A program made the translations under genes and the position numbers. A DNA stretch of 64,000 bases, from contig JAIYAU010000036.1 in the NCBI GenBank assembly GCA_027488865.1, positions 16,596 through 80,595 on the forward strand, in the 5' to 3' direction. Of the stretch, positions 43,245-61,300 are shown in pieces. This DNA is from Cytophagaceae bacterium (GTDB taxonomy: Bacteria > Bacteroidota > Bacteroidia > Cytophagales > UBA9547). The notes beneath the pieces are model-generated. The model did no database searches, had not been told where the DNA came from, and saw only the letters and a list, made by a program, of their open reading frames with translations. Numbering within the stretch: position 1 is the first letter of the stretch; each line of letters begins with the position of its first letter.

Positions 43245-43270
43245 GCAACCTTTATGACTTATTTAATATC
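43245..43270 (+). promoter_or_regulatory. Putative ECF sigma promoter, copy 1
   Basis: GCAACC(43245-50)-16 nt-TATC(43267-70), same arrangement as at 48733. Confidence 0.65.
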
Positions 43271-43287
43271 AAAGGAGAAAAATAGTT

Positions 43288-43749
43288 ATGTATAAAAAAT
43301 ATTTGCTTTTAGTCTTTTTATTGCAAGCTTGGTGGGTCCAAGCTCAGACTGATTTTAATGCAACCTTAATTACTAGTTTTTCAAGTTTAGAAAACTCAAA
43401 GATGGTGGTAGAAAATACCCTAGGAGAGGTATTGGTTAACAACTTTACTAATGTAAATGTGTATTTTACAAATGGTAACAATGGTTTTAATTTTGATAAT
43501 GTTTCTTCCGTGGAAGAATATACTGATTTTAAATTGACTGAATATCTCTATCCTAACCCAGCCGTAGATAAGGTATATTTTACTAATACACCCCATATGA
43601 GTTTTGTAACGGACCTGATTGATCCACTTGGAAGAAATTACTATATTCAATTTAACAATGGTGAAGCAATTTTAAATAATTTAGACAAAGGTTTATATCA
43701 AGTTAAAAACCCAATAACTAATAATTTTCATAAACTAATAATTAAATAA
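43288..43749 (+). CDS. Small secreted protein with T9SS type A CTD
   Basis: Signal peptide ending VQA-Q; CTD motifs LYPNPA, D.LG, L.KGLY.VK and KLIIK. Confidence 0.85.
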   Translation: MYKKYLLLVFLLQAWWVQAQTDFNATLITSFSSLENSKMVVENTLGEVLVNNFTNVNVYFTNGNNGFNFDNVSSVEEYTDFKLTEYLYPNPAVDKVYFTNTPHMSFVTDLIDPLGRNYYIQFNNGEAILNNLDKGLYQVKNPITNNFHKLIIK

Positions 43750-43751
43750 AC

Positions 43752-45956
43752 ATGAAATCAATAGGCCTAATAATATTCACGTTATTTGTTAACTTACTTT
43801 TTGCTCAGGTACCAAAAACAATTAGTTATCAAGGACTTGCGAGGGATTCTTCCGGAAATGCTCTGGCAAACAAAACCATTGGAATAAAAATATCAATTTT
43901 AGAAAATGCCTCAAACCAAGTTGTTTATTCGGAACTACAAACGCCTTCTACCAATAAATTTGGGAACTTCTCTTTACAAATTGGAAATGGCACTTCTAAA
44001 ACAGGCATTTTTGGAGAGGTGAATTGGGCAAATGCAAAAAATGTTAAGTTAGAAATAGATCCTAATGGAGGCAGTAATTATGAATTGAATGGAATAAGCC
44101 CCTTGAATAGTGTTCCTTTTGCCCTTTATGCTGAAAAAGTAAATTTAAAACTTGGTAAGGGTTTAGTTTTTAAAGGAGATTCTCTTTTGCTTACAGTTTC
44201 CAGTTCTATCAATCAGTTGTGGGGTGAGAATGTGAATGACAAAAGTATTTATTACAATGATGGGGTAATAATCGGTTCAAATAAGGCATCTAATTCCAAT
44301 TCTTTATTATCCGTGGCAGGAAATAAACCTTATGGAATATTTCCAGATGATCCTAGAGAAATGGTTGTTATCCACAATACTTCAACTGATAATTCGTCAC
44401 TAAGTATGTTAAATTTATATTCAGGAAGTAGTAAAACAAGTGGCAAGCTAACCTTATTACATGCGGGTCCAGAATACACCCTTTCAGGATCTGAGGGATC
44501 TAATCAAAGTATAATTGCTGGATCAGGAACCAACGGATTGGTAATTGCTGCTGATAATACGCCAGGTAAAATTGTTTTTAAAACGGGAGGCCAATTATCA
44601 TCTAATAATAGAGGAGTTATTACAAATACAGGCAATTGGGGGATTGGAACACAAACTCCAACAGCCAAGCTACACACGTTAGGTACAGTTAGGTTTGAAT
44701 CCTTGAATAATATTGATACTTTATCTAGAATTCTAGTGTCTGATATTAATGGAAATATTAGTTACAGAAATGCTTTAACCTTAACCTCCTCTAACAATAC
44801 TTGGAACAATAGCGATAATTTGGTTTATTTAAATAGCTCTAAGAATGTTGCTATAGGTACCAGTTCTCCAAATAATAGCAATGCAGTATTGTCTGTTGAA
44901 AGCAGTAGAGCCTATGGCATATTCCCTAATGATCCAAGAGAAATGGTAAGAATTCATAATACCTCTACAGATAATGCCTCCTTAGCTGGTTTGTCTTTAT
45001 TTGCAGGGAATATTCAAAATGGTGGAATCGCAATCGTACATCATGGATCAACCTATGCCTTAAGTGGAGCCGCTTATCAAAATTTAAGTGCAATTGGTGC
45101 TAGTGGATCAAATGGTTTGTTGTTGCACGCAACTAATACAACTGGTAAAATTGAATTAATGACCGCTGGTCAATCTAGAGGAGTTATTACAAATACAGGC
45201 AATTGGGGGATTGGAACTCAATCTCCAACGGCTAAACTACACACCTTAGGCTCCATTAGGTTTGAATCCTTAAATAACATGGATACTTTATCAAGAGTTC
45301 TTGTGTCTGATATAAATGGAAATATTAGCTATAGAAAGGCTTCAACCTTAACCGCCTCTAACAATACTTGGAACAATATTGGTAATTTGGTTTATTTAAA
45401 TAGCTCTAAAAATGTGGCTATTGGTACCAGTTCTCCCAACAATAGCAATGCAGTATTGTCTGTTGAAAGCAGTAGAGCCTATGGAATATTCCCAAATGAT
45501 CCTAGAGAAATGGTTGTTATCCACAATACTTCAACTGATAATTCATCATTAAGTATGTTAAATTTATACTCAGGAAGTAGTAAGACAAGTGGCAAGCTAA
45601 CTTTATTACATGCGGGTCCAGAATACACCCTTTCAGGATCTGAGGGATCTAATCAAAGTATAATTGCTGGATCAGGAACCAACGGATTGGTAATTGCTGC
45701 TGATAACACGCCAGGTAAAATCGTTTTTAAAACTGGAGGCCAACTATTATCAAATAACAGAGGAGTTATTACAAGTACGGGCAATTGGGGGATTGGAACT
45801 CAATCTCCAACGGCTAAACTACATGTAAGTACGGGTGACGTTTATATCGATGATCCTACCAAAGGAATTGTTATGAAAGCATCAAACGATCAATGCTTTA
45901 GAATAAAAGTGGCGAATGACGGAACCTTAAACTCAACTCTAATCCCTTGTCCATAA
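43752..45956 (+). CDS. Tail-fibre-like repeat surface protein, no T9SS CTD
   Basis: Signal peptide; N-domain QVPKTISYQG.ARD..G...SVPFALYA; three GNWGIGT..PTAKLH and two NVAIGTSSPN motifs; C-terminal GIVMKA...CFRIKV.NDG.L. Confidence 0.75.
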   Translation: MKSIGLIIFTLFVNLLFAQVPKTISYQGLARDSSGNALANKTIGIKISILENASNQVVYSELQTPSTNKFGNFSLQIGNGTSKTGIFGEVNWANAKNVKLEIDPNGGSNYELNGISPLNSVPFALYAEKVNLKLGKGLVFKGDSLLLTVSSSINQLWGENVNDKSIYYNDGVIIGSNKASNSNSLLSVAGNKPYGIFPDDPREMVVIHNTSTDNSSLSMLNLYSGSSKTSGKLTLLHAGPEYTLSGSEGSNQSIIAGSGTNGLVIAADNTPGKIVFKTGGQLSSNNRGVITNTGNWGIGTQTPTAKLHTLGTVRFESLNNIDTLSRILVSDINGNISYRNALTLTSSNNTWNNSDNLVYLNSSKNVAIGTSSPNNSNAVLSVESSRAYGIFPNDPREMVRIHNTSTDNASLAGLSLFAGNIQNGGIAIVHHGSTYALSGAAYQNLSAIGASGSNGLLLHATNTTGKIELMTAGQSRGVITNTGNWGIGTQSPTAKLHTLGSIRFESLNNMDTLSRVLVSDINGNISYRKASTLTASNNTWNNIGNLVYLNSSKNVAIGTSSPNNSNAVLSVESSRAYGIFPNDPREMVVIHNTSTDNSSLSMLNLYSGSSKTSGKLTLLHAGPEYTLSGSEGSNQSIIAGSGTNGLVIAADNTPGKIVFKTGGQLLSNNRGVITSTGNWGIGTQSPTAKLHVSTGDVYIDDPTKGIVMKASNDQCFRIKVANDGTLNSTLIPCP
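44328..45825 (+). repeat. Intragenic A-B-A' module repeats
   Basis: GATCCTAGAGAAATGG at 44349 and 45498 (offset 1149); AGAGGAGTTATTACAA at 44610, 45177 and 45759. Confidence 0.9.
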
Positions 45957-46044
45957 GTAACAAATAAAAATAATTTCAACTTTAATTGGATAGTTCTTTT
46001 TACTTATTTCATATATTCGTGTTCTGTTTTTCTGGGCACGATAT

Positions 46045-46518
46045 ATGAAACTAGTATTAGGCTTTGTACTAATCCACATAAATATTAGTCTTTTTTCTCA
46101 AGTTGTCACCAACCTAAGTTCTGGTCAGATTTTTAATTCTAAGAATGATCTTTTCATTGAAAATTATATTGGAACATTTGCTATCTCTTATTATAGTAAC
46201 ACTATACACAATCTCCAAGAAGGATTGTTCCATTATCCAGTAAGAAAGCTACCTACACCAACAGAACCTAATAATCAAACCCAACTATTCGAGGTTGTTA
46301 CTCCAAACAATGACAATAAAAATGATTTTTTAGTATTTGAAAATCCCAAAAAACTAACGCATAAGCTTGAAATATATAACGCCTTTGGCAACCTTATTTT
46401 CACCTCGGAAGATTATAAAAATAATTGGTGTGGAGAATCAGTAGATGCTGGCCAATATTACTATTTACTTCAATTGCCTGACCAGTCCATTCAAGGAACA
46501 CTGATTTTAGTTAAATGA
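46045..46518 (+). CDS. Small secreted protein with T9SS type B (gliding motility-associated) CTD
   Basis: Signal peptide; VTPNNDNKND, LEIYN.FG..IF...DY.NNW.G, G.YYY and GTL.LVK. Confidence 0.88.
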   Translation: MKLVLGFVLIHINISLFSQVVTNLSSGQIFNSKNDLFIENYIGTFAISYYSNTIHNLQEGLFHYPVRKLPTPTEPNNQTQLFEVVTPNNDNKNDFLVFENPKKLTHKLEIYNAFGNLIFTSEDYKNNWCGESVDAGQYYYLLQLPDQSIQGTLILVK

Positions 46519-47453
46519 GGCTGTTTTTACTAATCATTGTTGGTTGTTTCGGAACAAATACTTTGAAATCTCAAGACTTGTTTCTAAACAATTTATACCA
46601 AGTGAATTACCTCCAGTTAAATCCAGCTTACACTGGCAACCAATCATTAATAAGAATTAATTTATTATTGAATAGGCCTATAACCAACCAAAAAAGCCTT
46701 TATTCACATAATTACGTTTCATTTGATATGCCTATTAATCAAGAAAGGGTGGGTATTGGTGCATATGTTAAACAAGAAAAAATGGCGGGTTATTCTAACA
46801 TCGATGGTTTGGTATCTTATTCGTATAAAATAAAAATAGCAAAAGGACTTTTGGCCTTTGGTTTAAATGCCGGGTTTTCTCAGTTTAAGGTTGACTTCGA
46901 TATGTGGAAAAGAAAAGACCAAGACGATGAGCTGTTGAAAGAAAGGCAAATTCAAACAACAAAACCAAATTTTAATTTTGGATTATTATATAATAAAAAG
47001 AACTTGAATATTGGATTAGGCATCAATCACCTTCAAAATAATTACTTGATATCAAATCGAATTTTTAGAATTAAAAGGATATATAATTTTAATCTGGAGT
47101 ATAAGAGTTCCATTTCGGCACGGTGGAGCTTCAATCAACTCTATTTAATTCGATCCACTCTTTCAACTACAAACTATTTAGTTCAATACACCTTAAGTTA
47201 TTCAAATGAAATTTGGTTAGGGATAGGATATAGAAATAATGGATTTGTTAATTTTTCATGTGGGTTACAACTAAATAAAATTAACCAAGCCTTAGAAAAG
47301 AGTAAATTGTTTTATGCCTATGAGACTAGACTAAATAATTCCCTTTTTGGTGTTAATACACATAACATTGGATTAGAATTTCTTTTTGAAAAACCAAAAA
47401 ATGCCAAAAATGTGCTTAAAAATGGTAAATTAATTTCGCCGACTGATTTGTAA
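46515..47453 (+). CDS. PorP/SprF family T9SS outer membrane protein
   Basis: Signal peptide, QD, LNPAYTG, YSYKI, GIGYR, YAYE and TH; overlaps the stop of the type B CTD gene. Confidence 0.88.
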   Translation: MRLFLLIIVGCFGTNTLKSQDLFLNNLYQVNYLQLNPAYTGNQSLIRINLLLNRPITNQKSLYSHNYVSFDMPINQERVGIGAYVKQEKMAGYSNIDGLVSYSYKIKIAKGLLAFGLNAGFSQFKVDFDMWKRKDQDDELLKERQIQTTKPNFNFGLLYNKKNLNIGLGINHLQNNYLISNRIFRIKRIYNFNLEYKSSISARWSFNQLYLIRSTLSTTNYLVQYTLSYSNEIWLGIGYRNNGFVNFSCGLQLNKINQALEKSKLFYAYETRLNNSLFGVNTHNIGLEFLFEKPKNAKNVLKNGKLISPTDL

Positions 47454-47455
47454 AA

Positions 47456-48730
47456 ATGAATGGTTTTCTTCTTTCGTTGGCAGCAGTAATAATTTTGCTC
47501 TTAAATAGTTGTGTTATGTTTAAACAAAACTACCATAAGGATTTAGGCTTGGCATATTACGAAACAAATCAGCACTTTTTGGCAATTCCTCATTTGAAAA
47601 AAGCCATTAGAAAGGACCCTGCCAATTCACAATTAATAAAAAAGCTCACTCTTTCTTATTATAAGACTAATCGTAATGATGCAGCCTTAAAGGCTTTTTT
47701 ATACCTCGATCAACATAATTTGCTTAATGATACCCTTTCGTGGTACTATATAAAAACTTTAAAAAAGTGTGACAAAAAAAATATTCTAAACCAACTAAAA
47801 GCAAAGCTGAAGGTAAAAAATGAACTTATTGCTGGGTTTATCAAAACCGAACTCGAATTTTATGATTCAACTTTAACCTGGATAGGCAAAAAGCATAATT
47901 ATTTTTTTATTAAATCTAATAATCTAAACACTCCTTTTTCTGAACTTAATCCAAGCTATAGGCATAAAGATCAACTTGTGTTTTTATCTAATCGCGAGTC
48001 TGTTATTATCAAAAAAAAATCAGGAGATACAGGAATGCCTGCTTACAATATTTTTGTTACACGAATTGATAGCATAAAACTTGTAAATTCAAAAAAAGTA
48101 TATTTTGGGGTGAATACGCCTTTCTCCTCACTTATAAATTCGCCTAACCATGAAGGAGCCGCAAGTTTTTCTAGTGACGGCAAATACGTATTCTATTCAA
48201 GATTATCTAAGGACGAAGACAATCAGTATCGTTTTAAGTTATATCAAGCAACTAAAGGAAATGTAGGTTGGGAGAATGAATTGACCTTTAGTTTTAACAA
48301 AAAAAGGTGCTCTTTTATTCAACCATTTATCGATTCAACTGGATTGTTATTTTTTTTCACATCTGATATGGAAGGAGGTTATGGAGGAACAGATATTTAT
48401 GTTTGTATTAAAAAAAATGAATTATGGTCTAATCCCATTAATCTTGGACCTTCCATCAACACTGTACACAATGAAATAAACCCTTACTTCTCTGCTGACA
48501 GTACCTTATATTTTGCTTCAAATAGACCAAATTCAATGGGAGGCTACGACCTTTTTTCTTCGAAAATAAAAGATGACGAATGGGGTACTGCGCAAAATCT
48601 TAAACATCCTTTAAATTCGATTCAAGATGACCTTTCATTTTTAAAAATTTACAATAATATATTGGCCATTGTTAGTAATAGAACAGAAAGCAAAGGGGAA
48701 ACAGATATTTTATTTTTTAGGAATAAATAA
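47456..48730 (+). CDS. TPR + PD40 beta-propeller lipoprotein (PorE/PorW-like, lacks OmpA domain)
   Basis: Lipobox LNSC; N-terminal TPR; PD40 repeats FTSDMEGGYGGTDIY, P.NLGP.INT and LYFASNRP.SMGGYDLF. Confidence 0.82.
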   Translation: MNGFLLSLAAVIILLLNSCVMFKQNYHKDLGLAYYETNQHFLAIPHLKKAIRKDPANSQLIKKLTLSYYKTNRNDAALKAFLYLDQHNLLNDTLSWYYIKTLKKCDKKNILNQLKAKLKVKNELIAGFIKTELEFYDSTLTWIGKKHNYFFIKSNNLNTPFSELNPSYRHKDQLVFLSNRESVIIKKKSGDTGMPAYNIFVTRIDSIKLVNSKKVYFGVNTPFSSLINSPNHEGAASFSSDGKYVFYSRLSKDEDNQYRFKLYQATKGNVGWENELTFSFNKKRCSFIQPFIDSTGLLFFFTSDMEGGYGGTDIYVCIKKNELWSNPINLGPSINTVHNEINPYFSADSTLYFASNRPNSMGGYDLFSSKIKDDEWGTAQNLKHPLNSIQDDLSFLKIYNNILAIVSNRTESKGETDILFFRNK

Positions 48731-48732
48731 AA

Positions 48733-48758
48733 GCAACCTTTTTGTGGTATATTGTATC
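48733..48758 (+). promoter_or_regulatory. Putative ECF sigma promoter, copy 2 (autoregulatory position)
   Basis: GCAACC(48733-38)-16 nt-TATC(48755-58), directly upstream of the ECF sigma gene. Confidence 0.65.
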
Positions 48759-48779
48759 TAAGATTTAAATAACCCTAAA

Positions 48780-49301
48780 ATGACCTTTTTAGAGGCTAAA
48801 AATAAAGAAATTAGTAATAAGGAAATAAAGAAACTGTATTTGGAAATTGCACCAAAATTAAAAGGTGTGGCTTACAGGTATTGTAAAGATGAGTCAAAAG
48901 CGGAGGATTATGTGCACGATGCTTTTATTATTATTATTTCTAAGTTGCATACGTTCAGAGCAGAAAGTAATATTAAAACTTGGGCTACAAGAATTTTAAT
49001 AAATGTAATTCTTGGAGATAAGCAAAAAGCCAAGTTTTTTGATGATATAGATACATTAGAATCGGAATTTGAAGATAACGCAGATTCCACACTAACAATT
49101 ATCGCAAACAATGAAATTCTTTCCTCGGTCATGAAACTTCCTGAAGGAAAACGAATTATATTTAATCTATATGTGGTAGAAGGTTATTCTCATGAAGAAA
49201 TTGCCCAAATGCTAAATATTTCTGAGGGTACCTCAAAGTCACAACTGGCTAAGGCAAAGCAAATTTTACGGTCAATCTATCAAAACAATCGCTATGAATA
49301 A
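48780..49301 (+). CDS. ECF-type RNA polymerase sigma factor
   Basis: Region 2 AED.VHDAF...W..RI.IN; region 4 LP...R.IFNLY.VEGYSHEEIA..L.ISEGTSKSQL. Confidence 0.95.
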   Translation: MTFLEAKNKEISNKEIKKLYLEIAPKLKGVAYRYCKDESKAEDYVHDAFIIIISKLHTFRAESNIKTWATRILINVILGDKQKAKFFDDIDTLESEFEDNADSTLTIIANNEILSSVMKLPEGKRIIFNLYVVEGYSHEEIAQMLNISEGTSKSQLAKAKQILRSIYQNNRYE

Positions 49302-49896
49302 CAACAAACTAGATGATGATTTTGAAGCTTTTGCCAAAGATGAATTGGAAAAGTTCGAAATGCCAGTTTCTGATGAACTTTGGAATAGAATAGATCATCA
49401 TTACCAAAATTCAAAGGAAAGCAGCAATTTAGCCTCCTTCCTTAAAAAATATAAATTTTTTATCGGAGGAACTGTGATCTTAATTGGATTATGTTGGTTT
49501 TTGTTAAATGAAACCTCTCAGGAATCCGCTAAAAATGGTTTAGAATTAAATGGTCACAAGGTGTTGGTACCTACTTCAGCTATTAAAGAAAACAGTATTA
49601 CAACGCCGTCTCCTAACAAAAAAGCGATTAAAGTAGTATCAAATTTTCCTCATTCTACATCTTCCAATGGACAAAGCTTAAAAGAAAATGCCACCCCTAA
49701 TCCTATTATTGAAGATAAAGTAACTAGCCAACCTGAAGAAATAGTTACTTCACCTGAAATTACGAAAAAGGATACATCAGTCACAAAACTTGTTGATAAG
49801 TTGGAACTACCAGTGGTTCGAAAATCCCTTTTTGAGAAACTTAATTCTACTAATGATTCTGTTAATGAATTGTTTATAAAGAAAGTAAAGAAGTAA
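49294..49896 (+). CDS. Putative membrane anti-sigma factor
   Basis: Overlaps the sigma stop; cytoplasmic L..FE.PVS..LW.RI motif, one TM and a low-complexity S/T/P/K-rich tail. Confidence 0.7.
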   Translation: MNNNKLDDDFEAFAKDELEKFEMPVSDELWNRIDHHYQNSKESSNLASFLKKYKFFIGGTVILIGLCWFLLNETSQESAKNGLELNGHKVLVPTSAIKENSITTPSPNKKAIKVVSNFPHSTSSNGQSLKENATPNPIIEDKVTSQPEEIVTSPEITKKDTSVTKLVDKLELPVVRKSLFEKLNSTNDSVNELFIKKVKK

Positions 49897-50120: not shown

Positions 50121-50675
50121 TTGGATTATATTGGTTATATCAAAGCCCTGCATATTATTTTTGTGGTAACTTGGTTTGCAGGTTTGTTTTATATCGTAAG
50201 ATTATTCATTTATTATCGAGAGTCTTTTGATTTACCTCAACCAAATAAGCAGATCCTTACAAGTCAATTTGCGATCATGCAAAAGCGTCTTTGGTATGGA
50301 ATCACTTGGCCATCAGCTATATTAACAATTTTTTTTGGGGTATGGACGGTTATCTCTTATAACAAACTGGCATCAACATGGTGGTTACAGACGTTTATGT
50401 TGGTAAAATACACCTTAGTTATAGGTCTTTTGGTTTATCATGGTTGGTGCCAACACGTAATGAATATCATCAAAAGTGGAAATCTTAAGTACAGTCCAAC
50501 GTTTTTAAGAATAATGAATGAGGTAGCTACTGTATTCTTGGTAGCTATTATTTTTGTAATTGTATTAAAAGACGCATTAAGTTGGGTATTTGGCCTACTG
50601 GGAATTGTTGTTTTTTCAATTCTACTATTACTTGCAATTAGGATTTACAAATACGTTAGAAAGGACGGAAATTAA
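50121..50675 (+). CDS. hemJ: Protoporphyrinogen oxidase HemJ
   Basis: KALHIIFVVTWFAGLFY..RLF, RLW..IT.P and R..NE; TATATTTG promoter at 50091-50098. Confidence 0.92.
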   Translation: MDYIGYIKALHIIFVVTWFAGLFYIVRLFIYYRESFDLPQPNKQILTSQFAIMQKRLWYGITWPSAILTIFFGVWTVISYNKLASTWWLQTFMLVKYTLVIGLLVYHGWCQHVMNIIKSGNLKYSPTFLRIMNEVATVFLVAIIFVIVLKDALSWVFGLLGIVVFSILLLLAIRIYKYVRKDGN

Positions 50676-52025: not shown

Positions 52026-52346
52026 ATGAAAAAACTATTAAAATATTTTATTGTTGTAGCTTGGTTTTTCGCAACAGCACACGCCTACTCCCAAGATAGT
52101 GACCAATCATTAAAAATTGATTATAGTGTAAAAAATACGAGTACACAAGAAGCAAAAGATGGGGCTATTCAGCTGAGTGTGCAAGGAGGAGACGGAAAAT
52201 ATACCTTTCAATGGTTTGGCAAAGGTATTTCGAATATAAATACACGAGATTTGAATAGTCTTGTTAAAGGAGACTATTTGGTGGTGGTGAAAGATGGAAA
52301 TGGCAAAATAGCTGCTTTAAAGATACCCGTAAAATGTTGTAACTAA
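52026..52346 (+). CDS. Small secreted protein with a single SprB-type repeat
   Basis: Signal peptide; DGAI.L.V.GG...YTFQW....L..G.Y.V.VKD.NG. Confidence 0.82.
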   Translation: MKKLLKYFIVVAWFFATAHAYSQDSDQSLKIDYSVKNTSTQEAKDGAIQLSVQGGDGKYTFQWFGKGISNINTRDLNSLVKGDYLVVVKDGNGKIAALKIPVKCCN

Positions 52347-52349
52347 TTT

Positions 52350-55300
52350 ATGAAGAAACTATTATATCTATTTATAAGTCTGGCATTTACGGCAGTCTCG
52401 TTTGCACAAGTACAAATTGTTTCTGTTGATACCACTGGAGAATCATGTGAAGGTGCGGATGACGGTAGGATTTTTATTACCACTACCTCTGGAGCTTTAC
52501 CAATTACTTACTTTGTAAGTGGTGGCTCTTTTAATGCAACAATAATCCAAAATTTTGATACGCTCACTGTTAAGAATTTGCCAGCTCAAAATTATGTGGT
52601 GGTAGCGCAAGATATAAATGGTGATTTTGATTTTAAATCATTTGATATTTCAGCAGGCAGGGCAATTTCTACCCCAATCATTACGTCAAATGCTCCTTTG
52701 TGTCTTAATAATATTTTAACTTTTTCAGCAGCCTCTGATGCAGGTGCGAGCTACCAGTGGACAGGTCCAAATAGTTTTACTTCCACAAATCAATCCTTTT
52801 TTATAACAAATGTTACCGCGGCCAACGCAGGTAATTATGATGTTTATGCGACTGGTCTAGGAAAACAATCTAAAGTATGTTCCAGTGCTGTTGCAACAAA
52901 AAATGTAGTCATAAGCCCTGTCCCTAATTCTTCTTTTACTATTTCCAAGGCTTCTCCTTGTGTTAATGAGAACATCACTTTAACTTTTACTGGATCAGCC
53001 CAATCTGGAGCACTTTACGATTGGAATCCAGCTGGTGGTAATATTAGTGGACCTGATAACTTGAAAACAGTAAGATGGTCTACTAGTGGCCCTAAAAATG
53101 TTACCTTACAAGTGAGTAATAATGGATGTTTATCAACCACTACTACACGTTTAGTAAATGTAGTAAATCAACCTCAAGCAGTAATTTCTGGCATTGATAC
53201 CATTTGTATTGGTCAATCCTCCAACTTAACAATTACCTTCACAGGTACAGCGCCTTGGATATATACTTACAACAATGCAGGGACTCCAGCAACAATTAAT
53301 ACCTCCAACAATCCTGCAACAATTGTAGTTAGCCCATCAGTTACCACCAATTATTTTGGCACTTCCATTAATGATGCACAATGTGCAGGTGTTCCTACTG
53401 GGTTGGCAACAATTAATGTTAACTCGGCACCAAGTGCAAGCATAAAGGATACAACTATTGCAGTTTGTAATGGATCAAGTACAACTATTCCAATTTCTTT
53501 TAGCGGTACAGCACCTTTTAACTATCAATATACCGATGGAACCACTACCTTTTCAGGTACCTCTAACACAATTTCATCTTCTATAACTGTAAATCCTAGT
53601 GTAAGTACAACATATTCATTAGTTTCAGTAACAGATGGAATTTGTTCTGGCACAGTAAGTGGAACATCAGTCATTAATGTTTCACCTTCACCTACCAGTA
53701 CATTTACGATTCCAAGCACAAGTTGTTTAAATTCAGATGTTACAGTAACCTATACAGGATCAGCAAGTCCCACAGCTTCTTATAATTGGAATTTTGGAGG
53801 AGGAGTAGTTGTATCTGGTTCAGGTCAAGGTCCTCACCAAATAAGATGGTTAACCACAGGGCCGAAAACTGTTAGACTTACAGTTTCGGAAAACGGTTGT
53901 ACCTCTTCCCAAACAACCAACAATATAACCATACTAACAAGACCAGATGTAAGATTAATTACTTCCAATCAAAGTATTTGTGCGGGCAATAGCGTTACCT
54001 TATCATTTTTAAGTTCTGGTACAGCTCCGTATACTTATCAATTTACCGATGGTACTACCACTTTTTCAAGAACTACAAGTAGTGTATTATCTACCTCCTT
54101 ATTATCTCCCAGTACCACTTCTACATATTCAATTGTTTCTGTAGGGGATGCTAATTGTACAAATGGCACCTTTTCAGGAACTACCGTTGTTACCGTTAGA
54201 CCTGTACCAACTTCAACCTTTAGTGTATCACCCGCTGGCTTATGTACCAATCAAGCTGCAACTATTACTTACACCGGTACTGGTAATGCAGGAGCTACTT
54301 ACAACTGGACATTTGCTGGAGGCACTCCTGCGAGTGCTACAGGCCAAGGTCCTCATAATGTTTCATGGTCAGCTCCAGGCACCAATAATGTTTCATTGTC
54401 GGTAGTGCAATCTAGTTGCCCATCAACCGTAACTACAACACCTGTTACCGTTATTAATCAACCAACCGCCACCATAAGCGGTGCAAATACAATTTGTAGT
54501 GGTAATTCTACGAATCTTTCAGTGTCGTTTACGGGAACAGCCCCATACAACTTCACCTATAGTGATGGCTCTACTTCAACCTCGGTTACAACTAGTTCTA
54601 ACCCACATGTAATTGCAGTTTCTCCTGCTACAACAAGAACCTATACCTTAACCGCATTTAATGATAACAATTGTAATGGTACTTTTGGAGGCAGTGCAGC
54701 CATTACCGTAAACCCAACTCCGACATTAACTACATCTACAACCCAGAATGTTTGTTCTGGATTAACATCCAATATCGCCTTGATTAGTAATCCTACTGGG
54801 GCAAGTTTCAGTTGGATTATCGGTACAATTACTGGGTCAGTAACTGGAGGAATTGCAGGTAGTGGAAATACAATTGCTCAAACTTTAACTGGAACAGGGA
54901 CTATCCAATATATCGTAACACCCACTTCTGGTAGTTGTGTTGGTAATCCTACCACCATTACTGTAACTGTTTCACCAATTCCTACTTTAACCACCGCTAC
55001 CACGGCTAATGTTTGCAGTGGTAACAATGCAAATATTTCGTTAACGAGTAGCCCTTCTGGTGCAACTTTTGCTTGGACATTAGGTGCTATAACTGGCTCA
55101 GTGAGTGGCGCAAGCAATGGAAGTGGATCGACAATTTCACAAGTATTAACTGGAAATGGCACCGTAGATTATTTAGTAACACCAACATTAGGCTCATGTG
55201 TAGGCAGTACAAGTACTATTACTGTAACCGTTTCACCCACACCTACTGTAACCACCAGCACAACAAGTTCAATATGTTCTGGGGATGTAACGAGCATCTC

Positions 55301-58300
55301 ACTTACAAGCAACCCCTCAGGGGCTACCTTTAATTGGACCATTGGGGCCATAACAGGAGTGGTAAGTGGAGCTACGTCAGGGAGTGGTAACTCGATAGCT
55401 CAAACGTTAACTGGTAATGGAACAGTTGCATACCAAGTAACACCTACCATCGGTTCTTGTGCAGGTACCACAACAAATATCATTGTAACAGTAAATCCAA
55501 GCCCAGTTTTGACAACTTCAACCAGCCAAACTGCCTGTTCTGGAAATGTTACCAATATTGCCTTAACTAGTAATCCTTTAGGAGCAATTTTTACTTGGAC
55601 TATTGGTACAATTACAGGCACAGCCTCTGGAGCCATTGCAGGTAGTGGAAGTACTATAGCCCAAACATTAAATGGAGTTGGTACAATAGAATATATAGTA
55701 ACCCCAACAATTGGAACATGTGTTGGTATTCCAACGATTATTACAGTTTCAGTAAGTAACAGTTCCACAGTAACCACACCTAATACTGCTATTGTTTGTT
55801 CTGGAAACACGAGCAACATTGCATTAACTAGCAGTCCCTCGGGTGCTAGCTTTTCTTGGGTCATAGGTACAGTAACTGGTTCTGCTTCTGGGGCATCTTC
55901 TGGTAGCGGTTCTGTTATTGCTCAAACATTAACAGGAAGTGGTACAATTCAATATATAGTAACACCTTCATTTGGGAGTTGTACTGGTACACCACTGACA
56001 ATAACCGTAACTGTGAGTCCATTACCAAACATGACCGTGGCTACAACTGGTTCTTTATGTAGTGGTGCAACTACTAATATTCCTTTATCTAGCTCTCCTT
56101 CAGGCTCAACATTTGCTTGGACGATAGGTACGATTACTGGTATAGTTACTGGTGGAAGTGCAGGAGGTGGAAATAATATTTCTCAAACATTAACAGGAAA
56201 TGGAACAGTAGAATATATTGTTACACCTACCAGAAATGGTTGTGCAGGAAATTCAAGAACCATTACAATAACTGTTTTACCTACGCCAGCAGTAACTACC
56301 TCTAGTACCTTTTCCATTTGTTCAGGCAATAGCACTAATATTCCTTTAACAAGTAATCCAGTTGGCGCCACCTTTGCTTGGACTATCGGAACAATCACAG
56401 GAACTGCCTCTGGAGCGATTGCAGGAAGCGGAACTAACATAAATCAAGTTTTAACAGGCACTGGAAGCATTGCGTATTTAGTTACACCTACATTAGGTAC
56501 TTGTGTAGGAACAACAACGACCATAACAGTTAATGTATCTGGACCTCCTGTACTTTCCTCAAGTACTACAAATACAATCTGCTCAGGTGGAACAACAAGT
56601 ATTAATTTAACAAGTGTACCTAGTGGTGCTAGCTTTAATTGGACAACAGGTTTAATAACAGGAACAGTAAGTGGGTTTAGTAGTGGCTCAGGTACTGCAA
56701 TTAATCAAACCCTTAATGGACTAGGCACTGTAGATTATTTGGTTACGCCATCTTTTGGAAGTTGTGTAGGAAGTACTTCTACCATTACTGTAACAGTTAC
56801 AAATCCTCCTGTATTAACTTCACCTACGACATATTCAATTTGTGAAGGAAATACAACTGCTATTTCTTTGACAAGTAATCCTACTGGAGCATCATTTAGT
56901 TGGACAGTTGGTGTAGTAACGGGTACAGCTAGCGGAGCTGCCAATGGTACGGGAAGTTCTATAAACCAAACGTTAACTGGTTCTGGTACAGTTGAGTATT
57001 TAGTTACTCCTAGTATTACAGGTTGCAGTGGTGCAGCTACCTCCATCATTGTTACTGTAAATCCTGGCCCTACTGTTTCAACGGCTTCATCTACAAATAT
57101 ATGTAGTGGTAGTCAAACAAATTTACTTTTAGTTAGTAATCCAATTGGGGCTTCCTTTACTTATACCACTTCTTTATCTGGTGGTACTGTGACAGGATTT
57201 AGCAATGGCTCAGGATCACCAATTCAACAAACACTTACAGGTAATGGAACAGTTGATTATCTTGTCACCCCCACACTTGCTGGTTGTATAGGAACACCAA
57301 GTACTATTTCTGTTAATGTGAATGATGGAGTAATAGCATCTACATCTTCCTCAACTAACATTTGTAGTGGTGGTCAAACTAATTTGGTCCTAACAAGTAC
57401 GCCTGCTGGGGCCACCTATAGTTATACTACTTCAAGCACAGGAACTGTTGCGGGATTTAGCAATGGAATTGGTTCTCCTATACAACAAACTTTAGTTGGC
57501 AATGGCACAGTTACTTATTTGGTGACGCCAAGTTTAGGTGCTTGTTTAGGCACACCTTTGTCTATTACGGTAACAGTAGACCCACCAAGCACCGTAAGTA
57601 CGGTTTCACCAACGTCAATTTGTACTGGTGCTCAAACAAATTTGGTATTAACAAGCTCTCCAGTTGGTGCAACATTTAACTATACAACCTCCTCAACTGG
57701 AACTGTTTCTGGCTTTAGCGATGGATCGGGTTCGCCAATTCAACAGACATTGACTGGAACTGGAACAGTTACTTACGCCGTAACTCCTTCTTTTGGTGGT
57801 TGTTTAGGAACTACTTCGAATATAGTGGTAAATGTTAATCCTCCACCAGATGCTAGCTTTATTGTACCACCTGCCTGTGTAAACACCAATACTTCTATAC
57901 AATATTTTGGCTCAGCACCTCCTTCTGCTACCTACAATTGGAACTTCGGAGGAGCAACGGTAGTGCCACCTGGTACTGGCATTGGGCCACATAGCGTTTC
58001 CTGGAGTACCCCTGGCAATAAAACGGTTACCCTTCAAGTAACTGAAAACGGTTGTACCTCTTCTTTGAATTCTGTAGTTGTGGCCGTAAATAGTGCACCT
58101 GATGTTACGATAAGTGGAGACACTACCTTATGCCAAGGAGGTAGCCCTATTTTATATTTTAACTTTAACGGGATAGCCCCTTATGATTTTACTTATTCAA
58201 ATGGAAGCAATAACTTTCCAACTAATTCCCCATCGGACAGCTATGCAGACCTAGTGCCTACACCTCCAGGATTAGGCACTACAACCTATCAAGTTACTTC

Positions 58301-61300
58301 ATTAACAGATGCAAGTGGTTGTACAGGAACGTTTACGGGAACAGCAGTAGTAAATGTAGGTAATGCTCCAACCGCTTCAATTATTGGAGATACCAGTGTT
58401 TGTACTGGTTCACCTGCCTTTGTTAGAATAAGATTTAATGGAGTTGCGCCATTTAGCTATACTTATGACGATGGCTCAGGACCTATTAGTGCTAGTACCA
58501 ACAATAATGTAGAGGTAATAAATATTGCTTCAGTAGCAGCAGGTGTAACTTACACTTTATCAAATGTTAAAGATGCCAATTGTGATGCTATTATTTCAAA
58601 ATCAACAGCAGTAATGAGCATAACCCCAGGACCAGATGCTAGCTTTATTGTACCACCTGCCTGTATTAACACCAATACTTCTATACAATATTTTGGCTCA
58701 GCACCTCCTTCTGCTATCTACAATTGGAACTTTGGAGGCGCAACGGTAGTACCGCCTGGCACTGGCATCGGGCCACATAGCGTTTCCTGGAGTACCCCTG
58801 GCAATAAAACGGTTACCCTTCAAGTAACTGAAAACGGTTGTACCTCTTCTTTAAATTCGGTAGTTGTGGCCGTAAATAGTGCACCTGATGTTACGATAAG
58901 TGGAGACACTACCTTATGCCAAGGAGGTAGTCCTGTTTTATATTTTAACTTTAACGGCATTGCCCCTTATGATTTTACCTATTCAGATGGAAGCAATAAC
59001 TTTCCAACTAATTCCGCAACTGACAGCTATGCAGATCTAGTGCCTACATCTCCAGGATTAGGTGCTACAACCTATCAGGTTACCTCGTTGACGGATGCAA
59101 GTGGTTGCACTGGAACATTTACAGGAGCAGCAGTTGTAAATGTAATTGCCGCTCCTACAGCCTCTATCACCAATGATACCACCATTTGTGAAGGGGCAGA
59201 TGCTTTTGTAAGATTCAATTTTAGTGGTCTTGCACCTTTTACTTATACCTATAACGATGGTGTAAAAGATAGTACAGTTACCACCAATAATTTAGTTGAA
59301 ATTGTTAATATTCCAGCAGTATTGGCTAACGTAACTTATACCTTGGTTGCGGTGAGTGATGTCAATTGTGACGCAATTATTACATCAAACACAGCTACCA
59401 TTAATATTGTGACAAAACCTGTGGCAGCATTTGATGCTACTAATCCAATTGTAGCTTGTTTAAATAATGATGTCACTTTCACCTACACAGGTGCACCAGT
59501 TACAAGTTATCAATGGGGATTTGATAATCCTACCACCATCTCAGATCCGGATTTAACTACCGCTGGACCTTATGCAGCAAGCTGGAATACGTTGGGAGTT
59601 AAAAATATTTATTTGATTGTTTCAGATGGAAGTTGTGTTTCTGACACAGCTAAACTTGCATTGACCATTCAAAACGCACCAACTGTTGTTGTTACTGGTG
59701 ATACCACCATTTGTTCAGGAAATTTTGCCATATTAAAAGTAGCATTTACTGGAACACCCATTTGGATACTTGAGTGGATAGACGAACAAGGAACTCCTAA
59801 ATCAAAGGATTTTACAGTTGCCAACGATACCATTATGGTAAATCCTTTGTCAACATACAATTATGAATTTAGTCAGGTTACAGATGCTGCACTTTGCCCA
59901 AATACCATCATTCCAAGTAAGGTTAACGTTAATGTCGAAGATACCCCTACACCAGACTTTTCCGTTTCGCCTCCAGTAAGTTGTGGAAATTCTGATGTTT
60001 TGGTTAAATACCAATCTGTTATAGATCCTGAAATGAAATTTGTTTGGGATTTTGACGGTCAATCCAGTCTAAATCCGACAGGTAATTCTCAAGAGTACAA
60101 TGTACAATGGAATACTTCGGGAATAAAGAACTTACAGGTTACGGTTACAGACACCCTTTCCGGTTGTAGTGCTAGTGTTGGTAATTCAGTAACTATTAAT
60201 CCTATTGTTAGTGCCACTCTAAGCGGAAATGATACAGTCTGTTCAGGAACATCAGCCTCTAAAATACAGGTTGACTTTACTGGAGTAAAACCTTGGATTT
60301 TTACCTATAATGTAAATGGCTCTCCAGTTACCGATACTGCTGATGTAACCCCTTATTTAATACCTACCAATCCTACGGTTAATTCAACCTACAGCTTGGT
60401 AAGTGTAATAGACTCAAATAATTGTTCTGGTAATGTTAGCGGTACTTCTGATGTAATTGTAAAATTATTACCAGATGCTACGATTAGAAAAAGTGAGGTG
60501 ATTTGTTTGGGCGATACGGTTGGTTTGCAAGCATTATTAAAAGTTGGAACACCATCATGGACTTTGGTTTATTCTGACTCATCGTCTTTAGGTATTAACA
60601 TAGATACGCTAAATTCAAATTCAATAGTAGATTCAATTTTTGTTTCTCCAACGGTATATACCGCATACAAAGTTATAAGTGTTACAGATGCCTCAGGTTG
60701 TACAGCCTTATTAAATGATGAACAACCCCCTACTGTAAGTGTTGATAGTTTGCCAATAGCCTCATTTGTTGTAAGTCCAAGTGCCATTTGTTTAGACCAA
60801 GATGTAACCATTACATTTACAGGAGATGTTTTATTTAGCCCTAGCTACAGTTGGCATTTTGATAACAATACTTTACCATTAGATTCTACCTTAGTCGGGC
60901 CACACATTGCTCAATATAATACAACAGGAAACAAAACAATCAGATTAATTCTAAAAGATAATGCAACAGGCTGTCTTTCTGATACAGCCTTTGGAAATGT
61001 GCTGATTCAAGGTGCACCAACGGCGGTTATCAGTGGTGATACCACCATTTGCTCTGGCACACAAGCATTTATCAAAGTTGTTTCTACCGGAACAGCGCCA
61101 TTTACTGTTAATTTCAACGACGAATCTGGTCCTAGTCAAGTTACGTTATCTAATTTAACAGATTATATAAGTGTAAGTCCAACTAGTCAATTTATCTATG
61201 CCCTTGACAGCATTAAAGATAATCTAGGTTGTATAAATAGTAATATTCCAGGTTCTGTTCAAGTGGATGTTAATCCTTCGCCTTTGGCAGTTATTGCAGT

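Follow-up and report, generated by a model that had tools for sequence, protein, structure and literature searches.

The mosaic adhesive trimer (MAT) fibres of Bdellovibrio bacteriovorus (NF053851), in the sections of Caulton et al. 2024 (PMC10769870) drawn on here, have a signal peptide and, directly after it, a conserved beta-rich N-domain of ~110-130 aa, which presumably binds a surface element yet to be identified in Bdellovibrio. A second relevant system, treated in parts of Gorasia 2022 (PMC9143113) and Commun Biol 2025 (PMC12618676), combines a type B CTD cargo with PorP/SprF and PorE or a PorE-like protein, as in PG1035-PorP-PorE and Fjoh_3952-3951-3950. Canonical T9SS cargo with a type A CTD (PF18962/TIGR04183) is processed by PorV and PorU. 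The literature search found no description of CTD adaptors that act in trans to carry fibres lacking a CTD.

The window (the whole stretch of 64,000 nucleotides that was analyzed) contains seven co-oriented ORFs with gaps of -8 to +88 nt, as the preliminary description had reported, and the coordinate at which that description began, 43245, marks where a conserved promoter-like motif, P1, begins. The features, with the evidence for each in parentheses, are as follows.

43245..43273, + strand: promoter-like motif P1, GCAACC-17 nt-ATCAAA (motif shared with orthologues)
43288..43749, + strand: g1, type A adaptor, 153 aa (family scans, family alignment, hhalign, complex model)
43752..45956, + strand: g2, CTD-less fibre, 734 aa (NCBIfam, Bd2133 and PHROG matches; no CTD family)
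43806..44141, + strand: fibre N-domain, residues 19-130, predicted adaptor socket (complex model, conserved residues)
46045..46518, + strand: g3, type B adaptor, 157 aa (CHU_C match, homologue alignment, hhalign)
46515..47453, + strand: g4, PorP/SprF-family outer-membrane barrel, 312 aa (TIGR03519)
47456..48730, + strand: g5, PorE-like lipoprotein, 424 aa (NF052230, PD40, TPR)
48733..48761, + strand: promoter-like motif P2, GCAACC-17 nt-ATCTAA, 5' of g6 (motif search)
48780..49301, + strand: g6, ECF-type sigma factor, 173 aa (TIGR02937)
49294..49896, + strand: g7, putative single-pass anti-sigma factor, 200 aa (position and 8-nt overlap with g6)

The fibre g2 consists of a signal peptide (residues 1-18), a MAT-like N-domain (19-130), three shaft repeats of ~190 aa (period 567-582 nt, 90-97% identical) and a small C-terminal knob. 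In the NCBIfam scan it matched NF053851 with 48.9 bits (E 6.1e-13), a sub-threshold score since the curated cut-off is 60 bits. Part of the shaft was similar to the Bdellovibrio Bd2133 structure (8OND; E 5.3e-8), and the shaft matched PHROGs of phage tail fibres (E 9e-11 and 4e-8). The predicted structure of the N-domain had a pLDDT of 90-98, and its resemblance to phage parts was weak, with a best E of 2.5e-4 at a TM of 0.09 normalised to the query, and an E of 1.2e-2 for the P22 head-binding domain. In place of the earlier label, phage-fibre-like, related to Bdellovibrio MAT fibres is the better wording for the protein. No CTD family matched g2 at E<=0.1 in the Pfam and NCBIfam scans, and PF18962 and PF13585 were absent among the 25 Pfam families, of 26 in all, that were listed for a set of 87 complete fibres in the N-domain family, so that the reported lack of a recognisable CTD was borne out. 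In this family, the constant N-domain bears varied tips (collagen, Lcl_C, Fib_succ_major, Peptidase_S74 and Collar). The g2 protein is probably a trimer and may function in adhesion.

The small proteins on either side of the fibre gene were, as proposed, little more than a short domain and a CTD. In g1, a signal peptide (~1-19) is followed by the adaptor domain (~26-69) and a type A CTD (87-153), and in g3 a signal peptide precedes an adaptor domain at ~22-65 and a type B CTD at ~81-157. The g3 CTD matched PF13585 (CHU_C) with 58 bits (cut-off 27) and TIGR04131 with 33.7 bits (cut-off 35). The g1 CTD was weak, with 20.5 bits for TIGR04183 (cut-off 23) and 19.1 bits for PF18962 (cut-off 27); it was credited because Pro89, Asn90, Pro91, Gly115 and Tyr137 are invariant in a 64-row family alignment. 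Both passengers are divergent, as the direct adaptor HMM gave only 6.8 bits with g1 and no match with g3, and their assignment was based on orthologue alignments, that of g3 with 7 small homologues, and on profile-profile comparison. The adaptor-domain profile was matched by g1 (hhalign 96.3%, E 1.8e-9) and g3 (hhalign 95%, E 3.9e-8), and the two passengers matched each other (hhalign 98.3%). Moreover, the g3 orthologues in relatives matched the adaptor HMM itself with E values of 4e-4 to 1e-10. These comparisons indicate that g1 and g3 share one undescribed domain of ~45 aa, carried on a type A and a type B CTD, respectively. The idea of two alternative anchors was strengthened by this shared passenger and by the occurrence of a type B adaptor and PorP beside fibres in Pedobacter and in another family.

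A complex of g1 with three fibre N-domains was predicted with an ipSAE of 0.76, compared with 0.01 for the best of three controls (0.00-0.01), by a method that may place chains side by side regardless of real binding. This level of ipSAE was attained by 58 of 80 solved complexes, as against 2 of 110 mismatched pairs, a calibration that is only rough here because custom alignments were supplied to the prediction. The complex runs shared at least 91% of contacts, and the partner pLDDT was at least 72. The interface involved only residues 21-68 of g1, that is, its passenger, which touched all three fibre copies, and residues 24-38, 68-77, 98-104 and 111-123 of every copy. Fibre residues Tyr26, Gln27 and Arg31 and adaptor residue Gly46, all invariant or nearly so, fall within it. 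The anticipated interaction between fibre and adaptor was thus predicted, and the stoichiometry would be three fibre chains to one adaptor.

The pairing of the two genes was strongly conserved in both directions. A forward survey covered 99 N-domain ORFs in 80 loci. Upstream on the same strand lay an ORF in 84 cases and a further fibre in 8, and 7 had no neighbour on that side. PF18962 was matched at E<=0.01 by 67 of the 84 upstream ORFs, while the other 17 had no type A CTD match at that threshold. One fibre paralogue, on contig C52 of the same genome as the window, had a membrane protein upstream instead of an adaptor. In the reverse survey, the search for adaptor-domain sites took no account of fibres and located such sites in 16 other genomes among the 301 of a phylum sample. 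Twenty of the 27 sites were small type A CTD proteins with a fibre gene immediately after them, and a further 5 had a fibre adjacent or at most three genes away (25/27 in total). [quoted passage not shown] A CTD of either type was conserved on essentially every adaptor.

The type B form adjoined the fibre, with no type A adaptor, in two Pedobacter genomes (L012 and L013; adaptor, PorP, fibre) and in another family (L147 and L149; fibre, adaptor, PorP). Fibre, type B adaptor, PorP, PorE-like protein and ECF sigma recurred together in three genera of the family to which the window genome belongs. Of the 8 loci in family f1 that encode g3-like small proteins, 6 held a fibre as well, 5 of them together with a g1-like protein. 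Genes for PorP, a PorE-like protein and an ECF sigma recurred there, in a divergent arrangement as opposed to the co-oriented one in the window.

The g4 barrel, presumed to be the cognate shuttle and anchor of g3, matched TIGR03519 with 147.6 bits (cut-off 90.55), and a PorP of this type adjoined the g3 homologues in 8 of 8 loci of relatives and likewise in L012, L013 and L147-L149. The N-terminus of g5 was read by us as a lipoprotein signal. Its TPR and PD40 (beta-propeller) domains matched the PorE profile NF052230 with 159 bits (cut-off 600) over positions 6-417 of 648 only, and homologues of 411-420 aa occurred in 7 of 8 loci of relatives. No OmpA match was found in g5 by the family scans, the peptidoglycan-binding half being missing. 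In the PorE model, static anchoring is explained by just this domain, and its absence counts against the explanation that we favor below. SprA, PorU and PorV were found above cut-offs in the window genome. The 89 fibre-positive genomes of the phylum sample all belonged to SprA-positive families and none of 64 SprA-negative genomes had a fibre, a correlation that amounts to about one independent observation since 63 of the 64 are from one family.

The sigma factor g6 matched TIGR02937 with 84.6 bits (cut-off 42.9) and had homologues in 5 of 8 loci of relatives. The overlapping gene, g7, encodes one hydrophobic segment and had no family match in the Pfam and NCBIfam scans; a homologue was detectable beside the sigma gene in one relative (L112, E 3e-6), and g7 may be an anti-sigma factor. 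P1 ends 14 nt 5' of the g1 start codon. At ~45 nt upstream, g1 and its orthologues in 5 relatives all have GGCAAC(C/T)TTT (6/6), with ATC[AT][AT]A 16-17 nt 3' of it in 5 of 6. The composite pattern was not enriched genome-wide (5 matches versus 3 for the reversed control). Judged by this motif, P1 is likely the target of the ECF sigma, and P2 suggests that g6 regulates itself. The AAC-type motif upstream of g1, its orthologues and g6 supports the suggested ECF control, by which g6 and g7 would govern the cassette.

The explanation that we favor, although we consider the balance for and against it to be even, is that CTD adaptors acting in trans bring about both the export and the anchoring of a trimeric fibre that has no CTD, with two alternative anchors. 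In the proposed mechanism, 1) the secretion and anchoring signal for g2 would be supplied by a separate small protein, 2) three fibre N-domains would form a socket for one adaptor domain, which sits just behind the signal peptide and leaves the T9SS CTD as the only other part of the protein, 3) the adaptor CTD would lead the complex, once assembled in the periplasm, through the SprA translocon, so that adaptor and fibre are co-translocated, 4) in the type A arm, the PorV/PorU route would cleave the g1 CTD and tie adaptor and fibre to the cell surface, 5) in the type B arm, the g3 CTD would remain on the g4 barrel, with g5 as its partner on the periplasmic side, and 6) g6 and g7 would switch the cassette on from the AAC-type promoter before g1 and would autoregulate from the second copy before g6. 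The preliminary description had arrived at much the same interpretation, which is supported here; none of the computable findings that it named as contrary was encountered. The pairing across Bacteroidota points to an undescribed route for exporting and mounting presumably adhesive surface fibres.

A different and unlikely possibility is that the T9SS exports the small CTD proteins on their own to serve as docking pegs at the surface, and that the fibre takes some other route across the outer membrane before it is captured by its N-domain. The interface model is equally compatible with docking and co-export. Bdellovibrio is not known to have a T9SS, and Bdellovibrio-type MAT genes share the N-domain with no adaptor upstream in 2 of 2 loci inspected, so that a MAT-type N-domain does not itself require the T9SS; moreover, the sections used of Caulton et al. 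2024 (PMC10769870) place these fibres at the surface. However, the mapped loci encoded, beside the fibres, no alternative signal or machinery for export across the outer membrane, fibres were found solely in genomes from SprA-positive families, and the gap between adaptor and fibre, often just 2-20 nt, suggests coupled synthesis and periplasmic assembly.

It is improbable that g1 alone serves the fibre and that g3-g4-g5, together with g6-g7, forms an ordinary operon of its own for a type B CTD, SprF-like and PorE-like set next door. Such stand-alone operons are known, five of them in F. johnsoniae in the part of PMC12618676 used here, and six porP-like genes adjoin porE-like genes in that of PMC9143113. 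L115 and L117 have g3-g4-g5 with no fibre detected, a phmmer search of the 80 fibre loci detected g4 homologues in no more than 2 of them and no g5 homologue at all, and the g3 passenger lacks a direct HMM match. Set against these observations are the profile match of the g3 family passenger to the adaptor domain, the HMM matches of its orthologues, the four loci with a type B adaptor and PorP by the fibre, and L110, where the fibre is accompanied by the type B arm only.

Phage fibres often require dedicated assembly proteins, and the single adaptor that touches all three N-domains in the model resembles a trimerisation template. A periplasmic cap for folding or trimerisation of the fibre base, later removed and discarded via the T9SS without carrying the fibre, is nevertheless quite doubtful, as a disposable chaperone is hard to reconcile with the conserved CTD and the dedicated PorP and PorE-like anchor set of the type B form. 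Finally, co-regulated but physically independent surface proteins, adjacent through shared regulation or a mobile cassette, would be allowed by an interaction that is predicted only, but are very improbable given the two-directional association across many families, the gulf between the complex and its controls, and the conserved residues at the interface.

In-trans export and anchoring of the fibre would set this locus apart from each of its known counterparts. Like the MAT fibres, g2 has a signal peptide and beta-rich N-domain, a Bd2133-like shaft and, in its family, varied tips on a constant N-domain; unlike them, it scores below the NF053851 cut-off, has no S74 domain, belongs to a T9SS-bearing Bacteroidota host that is no predator, and comes with a small CTD adaptor encoded beside it. 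Phage tail fibres and tailspikes, which attach through an N-terminal particle-binding domain, are similar in shaft, N-terminal attachment and variable distal end, whereas the locus has no phage genes and the N-domain fold matches were weak. Canonical type A cargo shares its CTD with g1 and 67 of 84 upstream partners, and SprA, PorU and PorV with the window genome, but here signal and functional passenger are on separate polypeptides and g1 is below the curated cut-offs. The trio g3-g4-g5 has the same members in the same order as the type B CTD, PorP and PorE systems, and the anchoring model for PorP-like barrels, as given in the parts of those papers used here, transfers to it directly. The differences are that g5 lacks the OmpA half, that a type A version of the adaptor is present in the same cassette, and that the g3 cargo is merely the ~45-aa domain, so that the functional cargo would be the separate fibre. 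In Tat hitchhiker co-export, e.g. PaoABC, signal-less subunits are carried by a signal-bearing partner. The likeness, a folded signal-less protein riding with one that bears the signal, is an analogy with no homology claimed, and it is the inner-membrane Tat system there and the outer-membrane T9SS here that would carry the pair.

The family scans agreed with the preliminary description of the cassette, seven co-oriented open reading frames (g1 to g7) that occupy window positions 43288-49896 and are separated by gaps of -8 to +88 nt. The first, g1 (153 aa), has a weak type A T9SS C-terminal domain (CTD) that scored 20.5 bits against TIGR04183 (cut-off 23) in the NCBIfam scan and 19.1 bits against PF18962 (cut-off 27) in the Pfam scan. 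Since both curated type A cut-offs were missed, g1 was placed in its family by a 64-row alignment and hhalign, not by a curated CTD score. The 734-aa fibre, g2, is followed by g3 (157 aa), which has a type B CTD, with 58 bits to PF13585 (CHU_C; cut-off 27) in Pfam and 33.7 bits to TIGR04131 in NCBIfam, slightly below the cut-off of 35. The g3 reading frame shares a 4 nt overlap with g4, a PorP/SprF protein (TIGR03519, 147.6 bits, cut-off 90.55). The g5 protein has TPR and PD40 domains and matched the PorE model NF052230 with 159 bits against a cut-off of 600, over profile positions 6-417 of 648 only, and no OmpA domain was found in it at E<=0.1 in Pfam or NCBIfam; judged by these matches, g5 appears PorE-like in its N-terminal half only and falls short of the full four-domain PorE. 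The g6 protein is an ECF-type sigma factor (TIGR02937, 84.6 bits, cut-off 42.9) that also matched PF04542 and PF08281, in line with sigma-70 regions 2 and 4. No family match was obtained for g7 in the Pfam and NCBIfam scans, and its position, the 8-nt overlap with g6 and one hydrophobic segment make it a putative anti-sigma factor.

Two other origins of this arrangement were considered and rejected. The adaptor and the fibre are not a single frameshifted gene, because they have separate signal peptides and the adaptor ends in a complete CTD, and a phage or tailocin source was rejected because there are no flanking phage genes. Immediately after the cassette, at window 50121-50675, comes a gene for a UPF0093 membrane protein (123.8 bits); no link between the two was seen. 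Further along, window 52026-63998 encodes a 106-aa protein with a weak SprB-repeat match and then a giant open reading frame of at least 3883 aa that leaves the window. With its Ig-like, PKD and "CHU_C associated" Ig_7 domains, the latter is probably a very large T9SS adhesin.

The fibre has matches to the mosaic adhesive trimer (MAT) fibres of Bdellovibrio. Residues 9-110 of g2, at its N-terminus, matched NF053851 (Bdello_MAT_N), the model of the conserved MAT N-domain that directly follows the signal peptide, with 48.9 bits (E 6.1e-13), below the curated cut-off of 60, and the fibre paralogues in the same genome scored 44.8 and 30.6 bits. Residues 638-720 matched the solved MAT fibre Bd2133 (8OND chain A, 97-181) with an E of 5.3e-8, while the shaft matched phage tail-fibre PHROGs (E 9e-11 and 4e-8). 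The shaft contains three units of ~190 aa that are 90-97% identical in DNA; within window 44292-45823 there are 300-nt repeats with 90-92% identity and a 65-nt core with 92-97% identity, at a period of 567-582 nt, which suggests that shaft modules were recently duplicated or recombined within the gene. The full-length monomer model had a mean pLDDT of 50.7 and was confident only at residues ~20-130, the β-rich N-domain (pLDDT 90-98), as expected of an interdigitated trimer. At E<=0.001, a Foldseek search of the PDB matched a single protein, the neck protein of phage XM1, whose query-normalised TM score was 0.09; an informative fold relative was thus not found.

The 133 homologues in the N-domain family differ strongly in their C-terminal domains, as judged from precomputed Pfam content. 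Among 87 complete fibres, a set that left out 13 open reading frames cut by a locus end and, for its size, one of 1212 aa, the tips included Collagen (20), Lcl_C (13), Fib_succ_major (8), Peptidase_S74 (8) and Collar (2). This variety of tips suggests, by comparison with MAT fibres, a role in adhesion to particles, prey or hosts. The absence of a cryptic CTD from the fibre was borne out: no CTD was found in g2 at E<=0.1 in the Pfam and NCBIfam scans, and for the 87 related fibres neither CTD family was present among the 25 Pfam families listed, out of 26, the one unlisted family having at most one member.

The partners encoded directly upstream of related fibres, in the locus scan described below, are proteins of 156-200 aa with a conserved motif of ~45 aa between the signal peptide and the CTD. 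There is no model for this ~45-aa adaptor domain in Pfam or NCBIfam. At E<=0.001, a profile built for it matched 5551 cluster representatives (50% identity), of which 1309 were also matched at E<=1e-10, and the best 150 matches were mostly ~155-170 aa long with the domain at ~25-72. Applied directly to the small proteins of the window, the adaptor HMM gave 6.8 bits for g1 and no match for g3, and in the genome to which the window belongs the profile found only the copy on contig C46. Full-length small homologues of both g1 and g3 are present in relatives, and hhalign matched the g1 family (window residues 26-69) to the adaptor profile with a probability of 96.3% (E 1.8e-9), the g3 family (window residues 22-65) to the same profile with 95% (E 3.9e-8), and the two families to each other with 98.3%. 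The two small proteins of the window therefore share one passenger, which is joined to a type A CTD in g1 and to a type B CTD in g3. No homology between the adaptor domain and the fibre N-domain was detected by hhalign (probability 0.5%).

The genome of the window has three strong N-domain copies and a weaker fourth on contig C48 (G000:C48:604-1011, E 1.9e-18). The fibre on C46 has collagen and phage tail Collar domains, and 7 nt upstream of it is a 160-aa type A CTD protein whose score of 35.7 bits is over the cut-off. In this C46 pair (L004:7816-11486) the adaptor is canonical. The next gene, which adjoins the pair with no gap, encodes a 575-aa Peptidase_S8 protein that has a CUB domain at its C-terminus and could be a processing protease for the fibre. 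The contig end truncates the copy on contig C52 (L005:1-1299), and the gene upstream of this copy encodes a 349-aa membrane protein. Neither the C52 nor the C48 copy has an adjoining adaptor; these fibres may borrow adaptors encoded elsewhere, a possibility suggested by tandem arrays in which one adaptor accompanies several fibres.

A locus scan of one genome per species, with a 3-row N-domain alignment as the query, gave 563 confirmed sites among 598 matched stretches, and the best 80 loci were kept. These contained 99 N-domain reading frames, and the same-strand upstream neighbour was another open reading frame in 84 cases, another fibre in 8 (the tandem arrays) and nothing in 7. PF18962 was matched at E<=0.01 by 67 of the 84 upstream reading frames, or by 69 of 86 when two from the genome of the window are included; the others include three Fib_succ_major, two PorP and two CHU_C proteins. 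Two Pedobacter genomes have the order adaptor, PorP, fibre, and the canonical adaptor domain is joined there to a type B CTD. Named carriers of the adaptor-fibre pair include Pedobacter sp. BAL39 (L012), Pedobacter duraquae DSM 19034 (L013), Edaphocola flava HME-24 (L020) and Flavobacterium sp. J27 (L053). In another two genomes (L170 and L177) the fibre comes first, followed by a larger type B CTD protein of 404-442 aa, one with a weak adaptor-domain match, and then by a protein of ~600 aa whose end reads as OmpA-type by eye; they may represent a third layout of the adaptor-fibre system.

The pairing was also seen when the search started from the adaptor. Among 301 genomes drawn evenly across the phylum, the adaptor-domain profile was positive in 17, including that of the window, with 27 sites in the 16 others. 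At 20 of these sites a small type A CTD protein has a fibre gene immediately downstream of it. The other seven, when extended, comprised two loci with the order fibre, type B adaptor, PorP (L147 and L149), one in which the fibre precedes a type A adaptor (L153), two with a fibre within three genes of the adaptor (L150 and L151), one with a 666-aa protein lacking an N-domain match (L148) and one with nothing (L152). A fibre gene thus adjoins the adaptor or lies within three genes of it at 25 of 27 sites, and the proposed co-occurrence of fibre and small CTD gene holds from either direction. The fibre N-domain was found in 89 of the 301 genomes, against 17 for the adaptor profile, and all 17 adaptor-positive genomes were fibre-positive. 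The short adaptor profile is insensitive, since it also missed g1 and g3 of the window, and for this reason 18 fibre loci from adaptor-negative genomes, picked by hand across families and hence not a random sample, were examined. Thirteen had a type A CTD protein of 148-202 aa directly upstream. In three, the first or second gene downstream of the fibre encodes an adaptor or a type B CTD protein, and two had neither arrangement.

An interaction between the fibre and g1, which the preliminary description had proposed, was predicted by structural modelling. Complexes that combined fibre residues 19-160, in three copies, with g1 residues 20-153 and were built from custom alignments gave ipSAE values of 0.76, 0.75 and 0.76, whereas none of three controls exceeded 0.01. 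Of 80 solved complexes 58 score as high as this, as do 2 of 110 mismatched pairs, a calibration that is only rough for custom alignments and multi-copy jobs. The runs had at least 91% of contacts in common, the partner pLDDT was at least 72, and the three fibre copies, a number set by the input, had pLDDT values of 83-85. On the g1 side, the predicted interface is confined to residues 21-68, that is, to the passenger and not the CTD. On the fibre side it involves residues 24-38, 68-77, 98-104 and 111-123 of all three copies, and it includes fibre Y26, Q27 and R31 and adaptor G46, all of which are invariant or nearly so. The predicted contacts pair g1 residues 41-46 with fibre residues 24-31 and 98-104. 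Because the only PDB sequence match was to the Bd2133 shaft and no close relative of the N-domain was found in the fold search, recall of a solved complex by the model is unlikely. The prediction supports binding of the g1 passenger to the fibre N-domains.

The reading that we prefer, and regard as plausible although still somewhat short of probable, is that the T9SS exports and mounts CTD-less oligomeric cargo by hitchhiking: the hitherto undescribed ~45-aa adaptor domain would plug into the trimeric N-domain socket of MAT-like fibres and lend them a type A or type B CTD. Sec would export the fibre and the adaptors, the fibre would trimerise, one adaptor domain would plug into the N-domain socket, and the adaptor CTD would then take the complex through SprA. 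A type A adaptor would be attached via PorV and PorU, whereas a type B adaptor would be retained by its PorP barrel, beneath which the PorE-like lipoprotein would lie. The site and mode of fibre anchoring would then depend on which adaptor is used. A plug of this kind for the N-domain socket would also be the type of partner that is missing for the Bdellovibrio MAT fibres.

T9SS translocon and attachment proteins are encoded in the same genome, where SprA (2365 bits), PorU (1274 bits) and PorV (450 bits) all scored over their cut-offs. The main rival explanation, which we consider unlikely, is that the adaptors serve only as docking sites for fibres with a different way across the membrane. 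SprA was found in 237 of the 301 sampled genomes. All 89 fibre-positive genomes belong to SprA-positive families, and the fibre N-domain occurred in none of the 64 SprA-negative genomes; 63 of these 64 come from one family, however, and so count as little more than one independent case. In one MAG, genes of the Bdellovibrio MAT type (82 bits to NF053851) had no adaptor or CTD protein upstream at either of two loci, which counts against an absolute requirement for the T9SS. This MAG, labelled Bdellovibrio (G340), has both a Bacteroidota-type adaptor-fibre pair and adaptor-less Bdellovibrio-type MAT N-domains (L068/L157, L154 and L155). All four loci have 31-35% G+C, and mis-binning and gene transfer are therefore both possible. 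In L068 the adaptor reading frame extends to 314 aa and includes, in frame, a receiver-domain-like part.

A second and still less probable alternative is that the fibre is served by g1 only. The gene set of the cassette as a whole, however, is conserved. In eight loci of relatives, chosen because the g3 match spans most of a small open reading frame, the fibre, a g3-like protein and PorP occur together in six (five genomes from two other genera of the family), and in five of those six the gene immediately before the fibre encodes a g1-like protein. Seven of the eight loci have a PorE-like gene (411-420 aa) and five have an ECF sigma gene. In most of these loci the g3-g4-g5 arm is divergent from the g1-fibre arm, whereas in the window the two are co-oriented; despite this rearrangement, the gene content is the same. 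In L115 and L117, g3-g4-g5 are present and no fibre was detected.

The cassette may also have its own regulation. The sequence GGCAAC(C/T)TTT precedes g1, and also the g1 orthologues of five relatives, by ~45 nt (6/6), with ATC[AT][AT]A 16-17 nt downstream of it in five of the six. The window has two such composite promoter-like motifs:

43245-43273, composite promoter-like motif upstream of g1
48733-48761, composite promoter-like motif upstream of the sigma factor gene, g6

ECF sigma factors typically regulate their own genes and recognise a -35 element that contains AAC, and we infer that the g6 sigma factor reads both sites. The composite ECF-type pattern was not enriched genome-wide, with five matches against three for the reversed control. 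Two of the three matches outside the cassette are inside genes. The third (L158, G000:C28:45182-45210, minus strand), a GCAACC...ATCTAA copy ~190 nt upstream of a 108-aa erpA/IscA-like gene, could be due to chance or mark a further regulon member. A scan for sigma-70 promoters and terminators gave no excess over chance (promoters, 42 vs 36 +/- 6; terminators, 3 vs 4.2).

If export by hitchhiking is correct, several consequences follow, 1) a trans-acting CTD adaptor would be a new targeting principle for the T9SS, 2) the surface arrival of a large family of mosaic adhesive fibres in Bacteroidota, with the N-domain in 89 of 301 genomes, would be explained, 3) the question of which surface partner the MAT N-domain has, left open by Caulton et al. 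2024, would gain a specific class of candidate that can be tested, and 4) a small modular tag and socket pair would be available for protein display on Bacteroidota surfaces. The window is unusually informative in that type A and type B adaptors surround one fibre, together with a PorP/PorE-like anchor and a dedicated sigma/anti-sigma pair, and it offers a testable answer to how CTD-less fibres are mounted.

To our knowledge, the CTD of characterised T9SS cargo is always in cis. No description of a CTD supplied in trans, or of CTD-less T9SS cargo carried on an adaptor, was found in full-text searches of the literature, although secretome supplements could still list such fibres; nor did these searches give a description of MAT-like fibres in Bacteroidota. 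In the T9SS reporter experiments of one study (PMC10994853), a CTD-less fusion was the control. The combination of a type B CTD, an SprF-like barrel and a PorE-like protein is a known module, represented by the PG1035-PorP-PorE complex and F. johnsoniae operons (PMC9143113, PMC12618676). The arrangement here differs from it in that the "cargo" is the adaptor domain only and the PorE-like protein is without the peptidoglycan-binding half. The MAT fibres of Caulton et al. 2024 (PMC10769870) have the same architecture as those described here, with an N-domain that presumably binds an unidentified surface element, and their mosaic plan of a constant N-domain and varied tips is shared by the present fibre family.
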